Positions 16,999-26,957 of a stretch of 64,000 nt of DNA are shown here, in pieces. Source of the stretch: an uncultured Eubacteriales bacterium (GTDB lineage Bacteria > Bacillota > Clostridia > Christensenellales > CAG-138). Made by a program: the position numbers and the translations under genes. The first letter of the stretch is position 1; every line of letters begins with the position of its first letter. Below the pieces are notes generated by a model. The model had not been told where the DNA came from and did not search any database. It worked only from the letters and a program-made list of their open reading frames with translations. The stretch covers positions 2,485 through 66,484 of the forward strand of contig CADBRR010000126.1 of assembly GCA_902797145.1 (NCBI GenBank), read 5' to 3'.

Positions 16999-17021
16999 TA
17001 TGGAGTTCGGAGTTAATTAAT

Positions 17022-17903
17022 ATGGATATTAAATATACAGAAAAATTTAGGGAAACGATAGACCCCTATTCCCTATCGTTTCCGCATTTTAAATTAAAAA
17101 GCATTCTCGGCTATCCGCCTGCCGGGAACGATGTTTTCTATGTAAATGGCGATTTTATGGGCAAAAATATAAACGCTTTCCTTAAAGTCGAACGCCAGAA
17201 TGGAGCGGATATCGAAAACGAGCTTTCAACGCTTGCAGCATTGAAGTTTGATAAAAAACCGCAAGTTCTTGAATTTTCATTTGATGAACCTAAATATATT
17301 CTGACCCTTGAAGCGGAGGGCGAAAGATTATCGCAAATCGTTGGCAACAACGAGAATATGCAGTCGCTTGAATATATGGAAGAATATGGGGAAACGCTTG
17401 CATATATCCATTCACTAAAAATAGATGCGCAAGAAGTCAAGCACAGAAAATTCTTCGATATTCCCGAAAACACAGGGCTTGATGATATGGAAAGTTTCTT
17501 GCAAGAGAACGCTGCTATAATTAAAAGCGCTTATCAAAACAAATGTTTTTGCCACGGAGATGCGCATTATGCAAACATATTGTGGAAAAATCACCATATA
17601 TCCTGCGTACTCGATTATGAATTGTCGGGAATAGGCATACGGGAATTTGATATGGCATGGGCAGTATTTTTAAGACCGTCACAGAAGTTTTTGAAAACCG
17701 AACAGGAAATAGATGCGTTCCTTTTAGGGTATAATAAGTTGCATTATTATTCAGAATTGGCATTTATGTATTATTATGTTCTAATCGGAACAAGATTTTA
17801 TAATATGGGAGATGAAGAATATAAGCAAGATGTAAGGCTATTGCTCGATATGGCAGTAAAAAGATATAAAAAAGGTTTAAAAATTAAAACATTTAAAATT
17901 TAA
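17022..17903 (+). CDS. Aminoglycoside/choline-kinase-like phosphotransferase
   Basis: 293 aa. Brenner motif CHGDAHYANILW and DYELSGIG (DFG-equivalent). Substrate unknown. Confidence 0.6.
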   Translation: MDIKYTEKFRETIDPYSLSFPHFKLKSILGYPPAGNDVFYVNGDFMGKNINAFLKVERQNGADIENELSTLAALKFDKKPQVLEFSFDEPKYILTLEAEGERLSQIVGNNENMQSLEYMEEYGETLAYIHSLKIDAQEVKHRKFFDIPENTGLDDMESFLQENAAIIKSAYQNKCFCHGDAHYANILWKNHHISCVLDYELSGIGIREFDMAWAVFLRPSQKFLKTEQEIDAFLLGYNKLHYYSELAFMYYYVLIGTRFYNMGDEEYKQDVRLLLDMAVKRYKKGLKIKTFKI

Positions 17904-17909
17904 CTATTT

Positions 17910-17930
17910 TTTCAAGCTATTTTCAAGCTT
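17910..17930 (+). repeat. Copy 1 of 21-nt element TTTCAAGCTATTTTCAAGCTT (internal 11-nt-period direct repeat)
   Basis: Identical string at 18082..18102. Followed by TATAAT at 17938..17943. Confidence 0.85.
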
Positions 17931-17949
17931 TGTTTCATATAATCCGAGT

Positions 17950-18060
17950 GTAAACTTAAAAGCAACATTGAAATTGATTTTTTTCATTTTCATGTTCTCC
18001 CATTTTTCTATCATATAGAGAGAGTTAAGGTTGTCCGATCCTTGCTCTCTCTCCTTTTTA
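17950..18060 (+). ncRNA. Candidate small RNA 1 (repeat/TATAAT to terminator)
   Basis: Starts ~7 nt after TATAAT. Contains TTTCATGTTCTCCCAT. Ends in hairpin GAGAGAG-TT-AAGG...CCTT-G-CTCTCTC + TCCTTTTTA (18017..18060). Confidence 0.3.
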
Positions 18061-18081
18061 TCGGGTTTATTTTTGCCTGAC

Positions 18082-18102
18082 TTTCAAGCTATTTTCAAGC
18101 TT
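18082..18102 (+). repeat. Copy 2 of 21-nt element TTTCAAGCTATTTTCAAGCTT
   Basis: Identical to 17910..17930. Followed by TATAAT at 18109..18114 (and again at 18114..18119). Confidence 0.85.
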
Positions 18103-18120
18103 CATAAATATAATATAATT

Positions 18121-18197
18121 AAACAATGAATTAACAGATTTTGTTGGTTTCATACTCTCCATGATTTAGCAGGGCAGTTTTAACTGCCTTGCGTTTT
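18121..18197 (+). ncRNA. Candidate small RNA 2 (paralog of candidate 1)
   Basis: Contains TTTCATACTCTCCAT. Hairpin AGGGCAGT-TTTA-ACTGCCTT (18071..18090) + GCGTTTT. The bidirectional typA terminator lies just beyond. Confidence 0.3.
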
Positions 18198-18212
18198 AAT
18201 TATACAACAAAA

Positions 18213-18240
18213 CAGCAGGCATAGAACCTGCTGCTTTTTT
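18213..18240. terminator. Bidirectional intrinsic terminator (typA)
   Basis: CAGCAGG-CATAGAA-CCTGCTG flanked by an A-run (plus 18208..18212) and T6 (18235..18240). Confidence 0.75.
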
Positions 18241-18241
18241 A

Positions 18242-20071
18242 TTATTCTTCTTTCATGCTTCTTGCTGCCTGCTTCATTCTCGCTTCTTTAGTAAGCAAAC
18301 GCTTTCTCATTCTAATTGATTTAGGCGTAACTTCAACGAGTTCATCATCGGCAATAAATTCAAGGCACTGTTCAAGGCTAAGAATTGTAGGCGGAGTGAG
18401 CCTCAAAGCTTCATCAGAACCAGCCGCACGCATATTTGTAACGTGCTTTTTCTTGCATACATTAACAACGATATCTTCGTTTCTGCTGCATTCGCCGCAA
18501 ATCTGACCTTCGTAAACAGGAACGCCCGGTCCTATGAACATTCTGCCTCTGTCCTGAGTATTGAAAATACCATAGCCTGAAGTTTCGCCCGTTTCATGAA
18601 CAACGAGTGAACCCCTTGTTCTTTCTTCAATGTCGCCCTTGTATTCCTCATAGCCATGGAATATGTGGTTCATAACGCCATTGCCCCTTGTTGCTGTGAG
18701 CAATTCGCTTCTGTAACCCATAAGACCTCTTGCCGGGATAAGGAAAATAAGCCTTGTGCTTGTTTCATTTTCCGTTATCATATCAACAAGCTCTGCTTTC
18801 CTTGTGCCAAGTCCTTCCATAACGCTGCCAACATATTCTGTCGGAACGTCAATTGTGAGTTCTTCGATAGGTTCAAGGAGTTTTCCGTCTTTATCAGTCT
18901 TCATAATAACCTTAGGTCTTGAAACTGCAAATTCATAGTCCTGCCTGCGCATTGTTTCAATAAGGATTGAAAGGTGAAGTTCGCCACGGCCGCTAACCTT
19001 GAACATATCTGTTGACTGAGTATCCTCAACACGCATAGAAACGTTTGTTTCAACTTCCTTGTAAAGTCTTTCACGAAGATTTCTTGATGTTACATACTTG
19101 CCTTCCCTGCCAGCGAACGGACTATCGTTTACCATAAACATCATGCTTACAGTAGGTTCGTCAATCTTTATGAAAGGAAGTGGTTCAACGCATTCTGTAT
19201 CACAAGCTGTTTCACCAACTGAAATATCAGTTATGCCTGCAACTGCGATAATATCGCCTGCTTCGCATTCTTCTGTTTCAACACGCTTTAAGCCTTCGTA
19301 ATGATAAAGCCTTGAAAGCTTTGCAGTTCTCTGCGCATTGTCGCCGCCACACATTACAACCTGCTGATTCCTCTTTGCTGTACCTCTAATAATTCTGCCG
19401 ATACCAATTCTGCCAACATAATCATCATAATCAATAGTCGAGAAAAGAATCTGAAGCGGTTCGTTTGAATCGCCTGACGGAGCAGGAACAGTCTTAATAA
19501 TAGTATCAAATACAGGCTGCATATCGTTTCCCATATCCTTGTAATCATAGCCTGAATAACCATCTCTTGCCGACGCATATACTATCGGGAAATCAATCTG
19601 GTCATCAGTTGCGCCAAGTTCAAGGAACAATTCGAGCGTTTCATCAACAACTTCATCGGGTCTTGCACCGGGTCTGTCAATCTTGTTTATGACAACGATA
19701 GGTATTTTTTTGAGTTCGAGCGCCTTCCTCAAAACGAATCTTGTCTGAGGCATACAGCCTTCAAACGCATCAACGAGCAAAAGAACGCCATCAACCATCT
19801 GCAAAATACGTTCAACTTCACCGCCGAAATCAGCATGGCCGGGAGTATCTACGATATTAATTCTGTAACCCTTGTAGTTTACAGCTGTGTTCTTTGAAAG
19901 GATAGTTATTCCTCTTTCCCTTTCAATATCGTTTGAGTCCATAACTCTTTCCTGAACCTGTTCATTTTCCCTGAATACACCGCTCTGACGAAGAAGCTGG
20001 TCAACGAGTGTTGTCTTGCCATGGTCTACGTGTGCGATTATCGCTATATTCCTTATCTTATCGTTTGCCAT
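18242..20071 (-). CDS. typA: Translational GTPase TypA/BipA
   Basis: ORF 18242..20089, trimmed to [25 protein letters not shown]-motifs [12 protein letters not shown] and NKID. Full BipA-length C-terminal domain. Confidence 0.92.
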
Positions 20072-20207
20072 ATATATAAATCCTTTCACCTAATATTTCA
20101 TTACAACAACAAAATATTATAACTCTTTTTCGCCCTAATTGCAATACTTTTTCTTACATTATTTGCAGAAAATAAAACTAACATTTTATTAACTTGACCT
20201 CAAACCC

Positions 20208-22768: not shown

Positions 22769-23515
22769 ATTTACATATTCAGAAACAACTTCAAGCACAA
22801 ATTCGGAAAAATCAGCTTTATTGCAAACAAGGATATTTTTGTTTTTAACCATATTTGCCAGATTTTCGTCGGGAACAAGTGCCACATCGCAAACGGAGAG
22901 CATAGACGCATCAACTTTACTATCGCCTGCGCAGATTACTTTATCATATTTTGTATTGCAAAAATCGAGGACTCGCAAAACGCTCCTGCCCTTTGAAAAT
23001 TCTTCAGGCACAACGTAAATTTTCCTGCCGCTTGTCATAACAGGAAGTTTCGTTTTTCGCTTGACCGCCTCGAATATAAACTGAACATCGTCCTTCTCCC
23101 TACAATGCAGGAACAAGTACATATCATCGACCAGCCTTGCACTTTTTATATGCTCATTATCAGCAAATTCATTTAAAAGCTTTATAAGCACAGATTTATA
23201 TCCTGAAACAATTTTTTCGGATTCAGCTTTCCAGCAATCGTTTATAACATCGTTTTCAATCAAAAGCGAACCATTGCTGACAAGCGCATATTTAGCATTG
23301 CAAGGAAGCTTTAACCGCCTATAAAGCTCCGTTGAGCGTGACGAAACAAGCAAAACATCAACCTTTAAATCACGAAGCATTATAAATGCTTTTTCGCTCA
23401 TAAATGCCTGTTCAAAGTCGCCTTTCCATTCAATGCAGACATCACCGTCACGCTTATGCTTGAACGAATGTATAAGCGTATTGTCAATATCGCTTACAAA
23501 TAAAATTTTACTCAT
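22754..23515 (-). CDS. HAD-superfamily phosphatase (Ter-cluster associated)
   Basis: 253 aa. Motif I FVSDIDNTLIHS (DxDxT), motif IV-like CAGDSKVDASM. Starts 14 nt after the StiP-like gene. Confidence 0.8.
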   Translation of the reverse strand: MSKILFVSDIDNTLIHSFKHKRDGDVCIEWKGDFEQAFMSEKAFIMLRDLKVDVLLVSSRSTELYRRLKLPCNAKYALVSNGSLLIENDVINDCWKAESEKIVSGYKSVLIKLLNEFADNEHIKSARLVDDMYLFLHCREKDDVQFIFEAVKRKTKLPVMTSGRKIYVVPEEFSKGRSVLRVLDFCNTKYDKVICAGDSKVDASMLSVCDVALVPDENLANMVKNKNILVCNKADFSEFVLEVVSEYVNGERP

Positions 23516-23529
23516 ACACCTATATTACT

Positions 23530-24588
23530 TTATACATCAGCAATATTTCTGATAATACCGCAGGCTCTGTAATTTTCAAGCGGATATTCAATAACATCGA
23601 CATTTTTTTCGAGCGCAAGGCGGTAAATATGCGCAAGATGCTCGTTATCATCGAGGCTTCTAACAAGAATTTTCCACGGAACTCGCCTTAACAAAACCCT
23701 TGTCGTTTCGCCAATGCTCGGTTTAACAAGATTTATATCTGAAATTCCAAACTCCTTGCAAATCTTCTTGACCTCATCAATGCCGCCTCGATTAAATACT
23801 TTTTTGTCTTCAAAAACCGCCTTTTCAGGGAACTTTGCCTCAATTGCGTTAATAAATTCATAAGTCTTATCTTTATCTTTAAGATTCTTATAAAACGCAA
23901 CACCGTGGAAATCATCATCACCAATCAAGTCGTCACGAAGAAACGTTCTGCTCAAAAGCCCCGAAACGGTAGAATTTAAGCACGAACTCGGAATAAGGAA
24001 ATCATCATGCGTTCCACAAATCCCGGCGACGAACGCTGGGTCAGACAAAACAGCAACCCTGTCATCAACTCCGCAATAATCCTTCATCGCCTCTTTTAGC
24101 TGATTTTGAATAGCACCCTTGCCCGTCCAGCCGTCAACGAACTGTATATCCTCAGCCCTATGCCTGTTAAGAATATAGCGCATAGCGTTTTTATCAATAC
24201 CCTTGCCCCTGATTATTGATATAGTGTAGTGTTCAGGCGAAATTGAATAACGCTTTATCATATAACGCTTAATCAAAACGCCAATCGGAGTGCCTGCCCT
24301 TGCAAGCGATACGAGCACGACGCACCTACCCTTTTTATCAAATATCTTTTCGCTAACCGCTGCAACAGCGTTGGCAGTTAGCTTAGAATAGCTTTCAAGG
24401 GCATTTTCGTACGCTTCAAGATATTCCTTGCTCGGCTCGTATTCAAGCGGAAGCATTTGCGAATAATGAACTCCGCTTTGTATGAGTTTTTCCCTTTCCT
24501 TTGTGGGAATAGGTTCAACAAACCCCGTAATATCTTTGAGCAATATTGTTACATCTTCACTTTTAAATGTTCCAACCGCCTGCGTCAT
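23530..24588 (-). CDS. PRTase_1 + PELOTA-like protein ('cysteine protease StiP' family annotation)
   Basis: 352 aa. EREKLIQSGVHYSQMLPLEYEPS, VLVSLARAGTPIGVL, SIIRGKGID, FVDGWTGKGAI. These strings are characteristic of Ter-associated PRTase_1 proteins. Confidence 0.7.
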   Translation of the reverse strand: MTQAVGTFKSEDVTILLKDITGFVEPIPTKEREKLIQSGVHYSQMLPLEYEPSKEYLEAYENALESYSKLTANAVAAVSEKIFDKKGRCVVLVSLARAGTPIGVLIKRYMIKRYSISPEHYTISIIRGKGIDKNAMRYILNRHRAEDIQFVDGWTGKGAIQNQLKEAMKDYCGVDDRVAVLSDPAFVAGICGTHDDFLIPSSCLNSTVSGLLSRTFLRDDLIGDDDFHGVAFYKNLKDKDKTYEFINAIEAKFPEKAVFEDKKVFNRGGIDEVKKICKEFGISDINLVKPSIGETTRVLLRRVPWKILVRSLDDNEHLAHIYRLALEKNVDVIEYPLENYRACGIIRNIADV

Positions 24589-25711
24589 AATATTCTTTCT
24601 TCCTTTTTATGCAAATAAAGTTATTGCATCCATTTTCCTTTACTGCGCAAGCAATATCGTAAACGGGCAAAACATTTTCTGCGTCTGAATCTGTCATAAC
24701 GATTACTGCATCGTAAGAAGCTATATTATATATATATGTTTTTCTGTCCACATCATAAAAGCTATGGAGCGAATATCCTGAATTTATCGGATAATTTTCC
24801 CTGCTCGAAATTCCAATCGGGCTTCTTGTCGTTGCATGGAAATATACATCATAATTTCCGCTACTCTCAATTTTCTCCGCAAGATAAAGCGGTTCTATCA
24901 TATATTCCTCTGTTCCAAGCACGAGTATTTTCCCCGAATTTGGCAAAAAACTCACAATGTCATTATATAAACGCTTTATTTCGGAATCCCAGAAATTATT
25001 ATATTTTCCTACTTCAATACCTTTTCGGGCATCAAGTTCTGTTTTTGAGATGTAAATAAATCTCATGTTGGGAACATTTTTTAAATCAGGCTTTTTAGGC
25101 TCTGTAATTCTCAAACCTTTGCATTCTTCTTCAAAATCACGATTTTCTATCCTTACAAGGTATATAAACTCAATGTTTTCTTGCTTAAACTCCTCTATCT
25201 TTTCATCCGTTAATCTGTTAATTATTGATGCTACAACAAACCTTTTACTTCTTGCATATGCAAATTTGCTTCTTATTTTTGTAATAATGTTCTTTATAGT
25301 GTTGCCTGTTGAAATTTCATCTTCTGCAATAACTATATCATTTGTATCGTTAATGTAACGGTTAAGATTTTTCGTATACAATTTTTGACCCGGAGCATGA
25401 CTGTGCTCTTCCTTGAACTCAATATAATCCGTTATATCTTCCCTTGTTGTCGTTAAATAAATGCAATTATTACCGAACTTTTTTGCGCATACTGCCCCTA
25501 TTGCAGTTGCTGTTTCTGCAAAACCAATAACGAGCTTTGTTTTTACATTGCTTTGTGCAACCTTGTCCGCAAGCGCATTCATCATTTCAAGCGCTTGGCT
25601 CGGCTTTACACTCATGTGCTTGCCCTGAAGTGGATTTACAAGCAAGTATTTCCTTTTGTTATTATTATATCTTTTTGCTACACGCAATACATCATTTTCA
25701 CTATATATCAT
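24563..25711 (-). CDS. PRTase_2 + TRSP-domain phosphoribosyltransferase-like protein
   Basis: 382 aa. NNKRKYLLVNPLQGKHMSVKP, GFAETATAIG, IVIAEDEISTGNT (PRPP-loop-like). Overlaps the next gene by 26 nt. Confidence 0.7.
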   Translation of the reverse strand: MIYSENDVLRVAKRYNNNKRKYLLVNPLQGKHMSVKPSQALEMMNALADKVAQSNVKTKLVIGFAETATAIGAVCAKKFGNNCIYLTTTREDITDYIEFKEEHSHAPGQKLYTKNLNRYINDTNDIVIAEDEISTGNTIKNIITKIRSKFAYARSKRFVVASIINRLTDEKIEEFKQENIEFIYLVRIENRDFEEECKGLRITEPKKPDLKNVPNMRFIYISKTELDARKGIEVGKYNNFWDSEIKRLYNDIVSFLPNSGKILVLGTEEYMIEPLYLAEKIESSGNYDVYFHATTRSPIGISSRENYPINSGYSLHSFYDVDRKTYIYNIASYDAVIVMTDSDAENVLPVYDIACAVKENGCNNFICIKRKKEYYDAGGWNI

Positions 25712-25730
25712 CTTTCACCTATTATCCCTG

Positions 25731-26297
25731 TCAAACAACATTTACGCCATAGCCCTCACACAGGCTTTTAAGTGTATCCCTATATCCTGAACCCACAAGG
25801 TTCATTTTCCATTCGCCCTTGAATCTGTATATTTCAAGCGCAACGATAGTTTTTACTCCGTTAAGGTCTGTCAGGTCAAATCTATACTTTTCCCTGCCCT
25901 CTGACAAAACTTTTATCTTCGGTTCTTTTGTAAGCGAGAAATTATTTGTGAGCGCATCGCCATATACAGAATAGCACACCGCAAGCCGTTCTATCTGCTG
26001 CGGTACATTTTTAAGCTCGATATAAACTATATCCTTATCCATACGTATATCATTGCCCGACTGATTTTCATTGCCGAAAAATATTATATCATCGTCATTT
26101 CTGACCTTTCCGTTATTCATCAGTCTAAATACGTATCCGTCAATATCCGCATCGAGTCGCCTGAAAGCATCAGAATATTCAATCGCTATCGTTTTGCCCG
26201 AAATTGCATTAAGCGAAATCCTTTGCCCACGCAAAAGCTTTATAACATCCTTGTTTTCATAACTTATTTCACTTACAGGAAGTTCGTTTACAGACAT
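25731..26297 (-). CDS. Divergent TerD-domain protein (degenerate Ca2+-site motifs)
   Basis: 188 aa. Shares the TerD C-terminal signature IYRFKGEWKMNLVGSGY. Has GNENQSGNDIRMD where paralogs have [13 protein letters not shown]. Confidence 0.7.
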   Translation of the reverse strand: MSVNELPVSEISYENKDVIKLLRGQRISLNAISGKTIAIEYSDAFRRLDADIDGYVFRLMNNGKVRNDDDIIFFGNENQSGNDIRMDKDIVYIELKNVPQQIERLAVCYSVYGDALTNNFSLTKEPKIKVLSEGREKYRFDLTDLNGVKTIVALEIYRFKGEWKMNLVGSGYRDTLKSLCEGYGVNVV

Positions 26298-26327
26298 ACA
26301 AAATCACCTCTCGCACAAATCATAAAC

Positions 26328-26357
26328 AGGCGGAGGCAAATTTTAACCCCTCCGCCT
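26328..26357 (-). terminator. Intra-operon hairpin (possible attenuator) between terD-2 and terD-3
   Basis: Perfect 9-bp stem AGGCGGAGG/CCTCCGCCT. On the minus strand it is followed by GTTTATGATTTG. Confidence 0.45.
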
Positions 26358-26366
26358 AAAAGAGCA

Positions 26367-26957
26367 TTAATAGAATCTCTTAGCAAGCTCACTTATGCTG
26401 TTATCATGTGTTGGCTGGCCTATTGCCGAGAACTTCCACGTTCCGTTATAACGGTAAATCTCTCCGAATACCATTGCTGTCATACCATCATAGTTTTCTG
26501 AAAGATTATACTTGCAAAGCTCCTTGTAATTGTCGCCATCGCAAATTCTTATAAACGCATTCTGAATAAGTCCGAAATGCTGTTTACGCTGTGCAGCCTG
26601 ATATATATTTACAACGAATATTATCTTGTCATATTCAGCGGGCAAGTTATCAAGGTCAACACAAATCTGTTCATCATCGCCATCACCTGCGCCTGTAAGG
26701 TTATCGCCCATATGTATAACAGTTCCTGTCTTATGCCTGAGGTTGCCGAAATAAACTATATCCTCTGTTGCAACTATTTTGCCGCCCTTGCAAAGAAATG
26801 CTGATGCATCACAATCTATATCCTGTGGCTTAGGACCGAAAAGACTTCTCTTTCTTTCTACTTCGTCCCAACCAAGACCTACCATTGCCTTATGAAGTGA
26901 ACCGCCGTTTTCCTTACGCAGTTCAACTTTTTGTCCTTTTTGCAAATTAACTGCCAT
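26367..26957 (-). CDS. TerD-family stress protein (copy 2)
   Basis: 196 aa. [49 protein letters not shown]. Confidence 0.85.
   Translation of the reverse strand: MAVNLQKGQKVELRKENGGSLHKAMVGLGWDEVERKRSLFGPKPQDIDCDASAFLCKGGKIVATEDIVYFGNLRHKTGTVIHMGDNLTGAGDGDDEQICVDLDNLPAEYDKIIFVVNIYQAAQRKQHFGLIQNAFIRICDGDNYKELCKYNLSENYDGMTAMVFGEIYRYNGTWKFSAIGQPTHDNSISELAKRFY

Follow-up and report, generated by a model that had tools for sequence, protein, structure and literature searches.

Two neighbouring putative small-RNA genes beside typA in an uncultured Clostridia genome, both apparently under one two-component response regulator

The intergenic stretch at positions 17904-18241 of the window analysed here (a 64,000-nucleotide stretch of contig CADBRR010000126.1, assembly GCA_902797145.1) lies in the metagenome-assembled genome (MAG) of an uncultured Clostridia bacterium, which comprises 1.96 Mb in 162 contigs, and is bounded by an APH-family kinase-like gene on one side and by typA on the other. 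Judging from its sequence, this stretch probably holds a pair of small non-coding RNA genes, both of which appear to be controlled by a single two-component response regulator. A duplicated, regulator-controlled pair of small RNAs (sRNAs) had been proposed here before (hereafter the original prediction), and what is new in this work is the identification, by sequence comparison, of the regulator and its DNA code. We consider it reasonably probable that both units are regulator-dependent sRNA genes on the plus strand, and this OmpR/PhoB-type, activator-driven interpretation is supported by matching boxes at response-regulator genes, by promoter spacing, by terminators, by the absence of plus-strand open reading frames (ORFs), and by the similar folds of the two predicted transcripts.

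The original prediction had described a 21-nucleotide (nt) string that occurs twice, 172 nt apart, each copy being a tandem with an 11-nt period, and a repeat finder returned the same picture: TTTCAAGCTATTTTCAAGCTT is present in exactly two copies, 100% identical, at 17910-17930 and 18082-18102, and each copy consists of two occurrences of TTTCAAGCT with a period of 11 nt. Written as half-sites, both read TTCAAG-N5-TTCAAG. The hexamers of putative response-regulator box 1 (plus strand) lie at 17911-17916 and 17922-17927, over the -35 region, and those of the identical putative box 2 (plus strand) at 18083-18088 and 18094-18099. Each box is followed by a TATAAT at the positions originally given, 17938 and 18109, with gaps from the end of the 21-mer of 7 nt in unit 1 and 6 nt in unit 2. 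The -10 hexamer of unit 1 (17938-17943, plus strand) begins 10 nt past the second half-site, and the -10 element of unit 2 (18109-18119, plus strand) is an overlapping pair of TATAAT hexamers, 18109-18114 and 18114-18119, the first of which begins 9 nt past the second half-site. The earlier observation that no TTGACA-like -35 hexamer is present holds for unit 1, where the -35 position reads AGCTAT, but unit 2 also allows a near-consensus sigma-70 alternative at its second TATAAT (TTTTCA-16-TATAAT, 10/12). Direct repeats with a period of about 11 bp that cover the -35 region, with no TTGACA at a spacing of 17 nt, are the layout of an OmpR/PhoB class-II promoter.

These boxes are rare. When up to three mismatches were allowed, TTTCAAGCTATTTTCAAGCTT had three matches in the window versus 0.09 expected, and none of 100 shuffled sequences reached three; elsewhere in the genome there are no exact copies. 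An origin of the 21-mer as an interspersed or mobile repeat is ruled out, given that the genome holds two copies only. Outside the box, units 1 and 2 show no significant alignment (an equal score is reached by 84 of 1000 shuffles), and the proposed duplication is uncertain. Because the box is identical at 21/21 positions while the rest of the units cannot be aligned, the constraint is on the DNA site.

We scanned one genome per prokaryote species (GTDB) for TTTCAAGCTNTTTTCAAGCT and, separately, JGI metagenomes. The GTDB scan yielded 44 matches, most of them attributable to chance or to tandem repetition; of use were response regulator (RR) promoters and one locus in which four phased units lie upstream of a lipoprotein gene (L011). 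In three Clostridia loci (L013, L018, and L035) the exact 20-mer and a TATAAT lie directly upstream of an OmpR-type RR gene (MRILIVEDEIAL...), and a JGI metagenome contig (L083) adds one extra RR promoter with the same box and TATAAT. The operon order at the Peptostreptococcaceae locus L018 is RR, histidine kinase (HK), VTC, DUF4956, and CotH. An orthologue of the RR (56% identity; OmpR-family by NCBIfam) is encoded in the MAG itself on contig C2 at 24391-25074, with its partner HK at 23125-24387, and the genes for VTC (25225-25905) and DUF4956 (25931-26602) are divergent from this RR-HK pair. Within the 150-nt divergent region, the RR promoter reads TTCAAGCTTAATTCAAT-9-TATAAT and the VTC promoter, facing VTC, reads TTCAATCTTGATTCAAT-10-CATAAT. 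Response_reg and Trans_reg_C domains were confirmed in the regulator proteins.

The association between box and regulator also extends to four relatives from the same family (L115-L118), whose RR is 50-58% identical and carries the recognition helix EVY[IVM]SF[IL]RKK. In all four, TTCAA[G/T]-N5-TTCAAG-9-TATAAT lies upstream of the RR gene, and a further box in inverted orientation faces VTC-DUF4956. Seven of the eight matches to the relaxed pattern TTCAAK-N5-TTCAAK-N8-10-TANNNT in these genomes are RR/VTC divergent promoters, and a reversed-pattern control gave none. Since the pattern falls almost exclusively at the RR/VTC locus in these relatives, the two units seem to carry bona fide promoter elements of the C2 regulator. 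The relaxed pattern has four matches in the MAG, namely the RR promoter, the promoter of a metallo-β-lactamase (MBL)-fold lipoprotein gene on contig C104, and the two units; perfect boxes are confined to the two units, and among 400 other genomes from the order just two contain the stricter TTCAAG-N5-TTCAAG-N8-10-TATAAT. Both units match the regulator-gene promoters in box orientation and in distance to the -10 element, and a gap of 8-10 nt from box to -10 is likewise present at the RR, VTC, and MBL promoters. A cognate winged-helix regulator with the same box at its own promoter is thus found at L013, L018, L035, L083, L115-L118, and C2, and on these grounds the TTCAAG-N5-TTCAAG box is very probably the site of the OmpR-type C2 regulator. 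The genome-wide box search suggested alongside the original prediction therefore returns a small set of regulon candidates, comprising RR/VTC, the MBL-fold lipoprotein gene, and the two units, and not a widespread repeat.

Several further observations concern the regulator locus and related boxes. The arrangement of an RR-HK operon divergent from VTC/DUF4956, with mirrored TTCAAG-type boxes between them (C2:23125-26602), recurs as a cluster in L115-L118 and L018; in the MAG a second RR-HK pair lies directly downstream of DUF4956 (C2:26684-28785). We take the VTC-domain/DUF4956 operon to be polyphosphate-polymerase-like. On contig C104 (4531-5503) the box TTCAATCTATTTTCAAT-10-TATAAT precedes the 295-amino-acid (aa) MBL-fold lipoprotein gene, which is probably the third protein-coding member of the regulon and is divergent from a gene for a 205-aa multi-pass membrane protein. 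In family relatives, more distant paralogous OmpR-type regulators with the helix NNVE[VA]YISFLRKKL (L122, L126, L138, L139, L121, and L132) have TTTAAG hexamers, which are half-sites of the CiaR type, just upstream of their own -10 elements, pointing to a sister clade that uses a TTTAAG code beside the TTCAAG clade. In other Clostridia, at L093 (genome G259), L095, L099, L100, and L110, boxes of the TTCAAGCTTTCTTCAAG type lie upstream of genes for small lipoproteins or membrane proteins with lipobox Cys N-termini, and L093 has four phased box units. Lastly, on contig C26 of the MAG a 421-aa ORF with CxxxCxxC, which we presume is possibly a radical-SAM candidate, is followed by a 38-codon ORF, MRNEELFVMELESASLELIPTRCEGGGCFAGTFKSVGA (L004:1236-1352, plus strand), which has its own Shine-Dalgarno (SD) sequence and terminator and looks like a precursor of a ribosomally synthesized and post-translationally modified peptide; a TTCAAGCTTTTTTCAAT box about 150 nt downstream points antisense at this 38-codon ORF.

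Downstream of the two promoters, the sequence is predicted to encode two short, structured transcripts. With 5′ ends placed by assuming a start 7 nt past the -10 element, predicted sRNA 1 would extend over 17950-18059 (plus strand, about 110 nt), comprising a 5′ hairpin at 17961-17998 and a terminator hairpin at 18017-18052 followed by T5 at 18055-18059, the latter in agreement with the terminator first proposed for this unit. Predicted sRNA 2 would extend from 18121 (or 18126) to 18197 (plus strand, about 72-77 nt), with a 5′ hairpin at 18126-18153 and a terminator hairpin at 18169-18192 that, according to a terminator scan, is followed by GTTTTAATTA, giving a GUUUU tail at 18193-18197. The second terminator of the original prediction, a hairpin with GCGTTTT, is therefore real, but its coordinates (18071..18097) were off by 100, since GCGTTTT lies at 18191-18197. 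No neighbouring gene has a use for the unit 2 terminator.

Both predicted RNAs contain the related CUCC motifs described earlier, TTTCATGTTCTCCCAT at 17988-18003 and TTTCATACTCTCCAT at 18148-18162, and the positions proved correct. Fold prediction leaves the linker motif UCUCCCAU (17996-18003, plus strand) exposed in sRNA 1 and UCUCCAU (18156-18162, plus strand) exposed in sRNA 2, with unpaired probabilities for the motif of 0.71 in sRNA 1 (0.97 for the linker) and 0.92-0.94 in sRNA 2; compared with shuffled sequences the folds have z-scores of -4.8 and -4.5, respectively. The two share an architecture in which a 5′ stem-loop with the 3′ arm UUUCAU is followed by a single-stranded linker starting UCUCC(C)AU and then by the terminator stem-loop. 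UCUCC(C)AU is complementary to a Shine-Dalgarno GGAG flanked by AUG. The corresponding string TTTCAT-NN-TCTCC occurs four times in the genome, and the two occurrences outside the units resemble mirrors of ordinary gene starts. The ORF listing contained no plus-strand ORF with an SD downstream of either promoter, and peptide coding on this strand is ruled out, unit 1 having a single 16-codon TTG frame without an SD and unit 2 none.

We propose that these elements form two adjacent, independently transcribed plus-strand sRNA genes, each with a class-II activator-dependent promoter in which the TTCAAG-N5-TTCAAG direct repeat, set 9-10 nt before TATAAT, would stand in for the -35 element. The OmpR-family RR of contig C2, with its partner kinase, is the most likely activator; in its phosphorylated form it would occupy both perfect boxes and bring in RNA polymerase, and the resulting transcripts (about 110 and 75 nt) would each terminate at the intrinsic terminator of its own unit. 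The most likely action of the RNAs would be pairing of the single-stranded UCUCC(C)AU linker in trans with ribosome-binding sites of mRNAs, which would block translation. We give such action in trans on ribosome-binding sites slightly less than an even chance.

The APH-like gene (17022-17903, plus strand; Pfam APH at 1.3e-14) has a stop codon that ends at 17903, directly before the intergenic stretch, and typA/bipA (18242-20089, minus strand) adjoins its other end. A bidirectional typA terminator, CAGCAGG...CCTGCTG between an A-run and a T-run (18213-18240, both strands), was identified as an inverted repeat and by the terminator scan, and provides a plus-strand back-stop behind the units. Two independent ENA metagenome contigs contain the same region at 100% identity, and it is therefore no assembly artefact; contigs with an identical APH-like protein likewise keep the whole region at 100% identity.

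Several results weigh against the sRNA interpretation. First, the hairpin of unit 1 could be there just to terminate the APH-like gene, and unit 2 has only a short U-tract (UUUU). Second, searches for homologues of the RNAs were negative: an Rfam cmscan of 17000-19000 with E up to 10 gave ten weak matches, none relevant and none to a csRNA; neither RNA has a homologue in the 40 relatives covered by a DNA search, in the family, in order-wide genomes, or in the GTDB and JGI collections; and in the closest typA relatives (84% identity) the intergenic region past the typA 3′ end is short, at about 100 nt, and does not contain the modules. The only other copies of the region are 100% identical, and there is therefore no covariation to analyse. 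Among 240 family genomes, no box site (up to two mismatches) was followed by a -10 element and then a terminator; for most of these sites the downstream sequence has neither and is coding-like in appearance, as judged without ORF calls. The comparison with related genomes and Rfam that had been proposed as a check hence came back empty. Third, target prediction for the CUCC regions, proposed likewise, was unsuccessful, in that RNAduplex against 2559 crude translation-start regions performed no better than shuffled seeds. Regulon genes rank unremarkably as targets; the best of them, the start region of the kinase (GGGAGAA), comes 86th for sRNA 1. Because relatives that bear the RR and the box are without the RNAs, these look like a recent, lineage-specific addition to a small conserved regulon.

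A further point against the sRNA interpretation comes from the minus strand, where the 29- and 28-codon ORFs reported in the original prediction do exist, as parts of two longer frames. Micro-ORF 1 (17904-18014, minus strand, 36 aa; 29 aa from the ATG at 17993 and 27 aa from the ATG at 17987) mirrors sRNA 1, and micro-ORF 2 (18067-18162, minus strand, 31 aa; 28 aa from the ATG at 18153) mirrors sRNA 2. The openness of both frames exceeds chance expectation (P of about 0.23 and 0.32 for the interiors), and both use the single open frame of the box. These micro-ORFs (27-36 aa) may be translated, in which case the regulator-driven plus-strand RNAs would be fully overlapping antisense silencers in the manner of type I toxin-antitoxin or Ibs/Sib loci. 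Type I loci are typically found in tandem copies. Both ORFs start at the GGAG plus ATG that mirrors the RNA motif and cross the box in its only open frame, they differ in length by exactly four codons, and the chance of both interiors being open is about 0.07, or less when the frame is taken into account; in ORF1 another in-frame ATG lies 9 nt from the GGAG, and a perfect minus-strand TATAAT (18200-18205) lies upstream of ORF2. This TATAAT (18200-18208 with the TTG before it, minus strand) sits directly past the typA terminator and has no recognisable -35.

The KLENSLK tail common to both peptides, however, is simply the translated box, as originally argued: it is identical at 21/21 nt, third positions included, and the remainder is unalignable, which places the conservation at the DNA level. 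An anti-SD/anti-AUG seed also automatically yields an SD plus ATG on the opposite strand. A hydrophobic run of transmembrane length (18-20 residues), such as a type I toxin would have, is absent from both predicted peptides, MKMKKINFNVAFKFTLGLYETKLENSLKK and MKPTKSVNSLFNYIIFMKLENSLKVRQK. The argument that the GGAG lies too close to the ATG is fully valid for ORF2 only, whose sole start is 3 nt from the GGAG with none better placed, because in ORF1 the second in-frame ATG follows the GGAG by 9 nt. No terminator follows ORF1 on the minus strand, the promoters of that strand are weak (at most 9/12), an exhaustive search of 1.84 billion proteins with ORF1 gave 0 homologues, and gene callers annotate no gene here in the ENA contigs. 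On balance, we regard translated micro-ORFs with antisense silencers as unlikely.

It is also conceivable that the boxes are real regulator sites and the transcripts functionless, the boxes being decoy or titration sites or remnants of promoters whose genes were lost. The hairpins would then be no more than terminators of the convergent neighbours. The lack of conservation of the RNAs beyond the species and of a convincing target would fit such an explanation, and hairpin 1 could terminate the APH-like gene, the last hairpin being that of typA. Opposed to this, the genome has no better sites than the two perfect boxes, each with a TATAAT at the correct spacing, unit 2 owns a terminator that no neighbour needs, and a fold with an exposed motif is common to both RNAs despite their unrelated sequence. 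We consider this explanation quite improbable.

Both promoters face the 3′ end of typA, and some read-through at the short U-tract of unit 2 is plausible, which raises the prospect that regulator-dependent convergent transcription modulates typA by antisense or transcriptional interference. Three serial plus-strand terminators precede typA, the last with a T6 run, and the typA start region is low in the pairing ranking, which makes this very improbable. Lastly, the proposal that the micro-ORFs are the sole genes, encoding small secreted or signalling peptides while the plus-strand promoter and terminator features are coincidental, can draw on the existence of the ORFs and on their MK... starts, which some short signalling peptides share, but it is scarcely credible given that the box and -10 occur in the same layout and orientation at the regulator's own gene in about nine other genomes, that the hairpins have T-runs on the plus strand only, and that the search with ORF1 found no peptide homologues.

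If the RNAs are real, regulator-dependent sRNA genes would represent a clean natural case of a response regulator gaining a post-transcriptional arm. The TTCAAG-N5-TTCAAG-N9/10-TATAAT code would also provide a first regulatory handle on the widespread and uncharacterised RR-HK/VTC-DUF4956(-CotH) cluster of Clostridia, and a rule that combines box and terminator could be used for mining sRNAs in uncultured Firmicutes.

Several known systems resemble the proposed sRNA pair in part. At PhoB/OmpR class-II promoters, direct repeats (pho boxes) phased at 11 bp cover the -35 region about 10 nt from the -10 element, and OmrA/OmrB of E. coli are adjacent paralogous sRNAs under an OmpR-family regulator that pair via their 5′ ends and are Hfq-dependent; the units differ from both in box sequence, phylum, and seed. 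Ibs/Sib tandem loci comprise a tiny ORF fully overlapped by an antisense RNA of about 100 nt with its own promoter and terminator. Here, in contrast, the peptides are not hydrophobic membrane peptides, the antisense promoter would be activator-dependent, and the ORF strand is without a good promoter or terminator. VirR and RgaR, two regulators of sRNA genes in Clostridia, are not of the OmpR/PhoB type and use longer repeats with another spacing. The units differ from the VirR and RgaR RNAs in being unrelated in sequence to them, and those RNAs have not been described as anti-SD twins. What the VirR RNAs of Clostridium perfringens (PMC4877802, PMC2838878) and the RgaR sRNA of Clostridioides difficile (PMC10602386) have in common with the units is a response regulator on direct repeats upstream of an sRNA gene, within the class Clostridia.

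The closest parallel is provided by the csRNAs of streptococci. The box of CiaR, TTTAAG-N5-TTTAAG (NTTAAG-N5-TTTAAG), lies 10 nt from the -10 element and has an invariant third T (PMC3091779). Of the CiaR promoters, the five strongest are those of sRNAs 51-202 nt in size, which have two stem-loops, an unpaired anti-SD plus CAU, and a terminator within 250 nt; the sRNA genes form clusters, share little sequence similarity, and vary in genomic position (PMC3091779, PMC8186281). Like the csRNAs of CiaRH (ccn genes), both units have an OmpR-type hexamer-N5-hexamer box in place of the -35 element, 10 nt (unit 1) and 9 nt (unit 2) from TATAAT, and both are intergenic, with terminators that end at 18059 and 18197, 116 and 83 nt past the -10 element and thus within the 250-nt limit. 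The predicted sizes fall in the range of 51-202 nt, and two stem-loops are predicted, with UCUCCCAU and UCUCCAU unpaired (0.71 and 0.92) between the 5′ hairpin and the terminator. Several clustered copies with low overall sequence similarity, a genomic location that varies between lineages, and the placement of the strongest boxes of the regulon before the sRNAs complete the resemblance.

Differences from the csRNAs are also evident. The half-site of the units, TTCAAG, has a C at the invariant third T of CiaR and so does not form a CiaR box; the csRNA nonamer [A/C]UCCUAAA[A/C] is missing, the units reading CUCCCAUUUUUCU and ACUCUCCAUGAUUUA after the first hairpin; and the cmscan of 17000-19000 gave the units no csRNA match. 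The csRNAs belong to Streptococcus, whereas the present host is an uncultured Clostridia MAG and its RNAs are predictions. Unlike that of the CiaR regulon, the regulator here is linked to VTC/DUF4956 and not to htrA: the readable htrA copy (C66) has no box upstream, and the other copy lies at a contig end. The recognition helix of the C2 RR, NIEVYISFIRKKV, matches that of CiaR, VVEVYVSKVRKKL, at 7 of 13 positions, the best among the seven OmpR paralogues in the genome, and the L018 RR has the helix SVEVYISFVRKKL; an NCBIfam search with the C2 RR gave no CiaR-specific match. The unit pair follows the csRNA design but is unrelated to the csRNAs in sequence, and membership of the csRNA family fails because of the C in the hexamer, the absent nonamer, the lack of an Rfam match, and a regulon built on VTC/DUF4956 rather than htrA. 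A more speculative account, which we hold to be unlikely, is that a two-component system that normally controls only itself and VTC/DUF4956 has here gained two anti-Shine-Dalgarno sRNAs as its strongest outputs, so that the CiaRH-csRNA design would have arisen independently and recently in Clostridia; in the boldest version of this account, covered by the same low estimate, the RNAs would double as regulator-switched antisense silencers of two opposite-strand micro-proteins. Under the sRNA interpretation in general, the two RNAs would form the RNA output arm of their two-component system, a role that the csRNAs have in the CiaRH system of streptococci.

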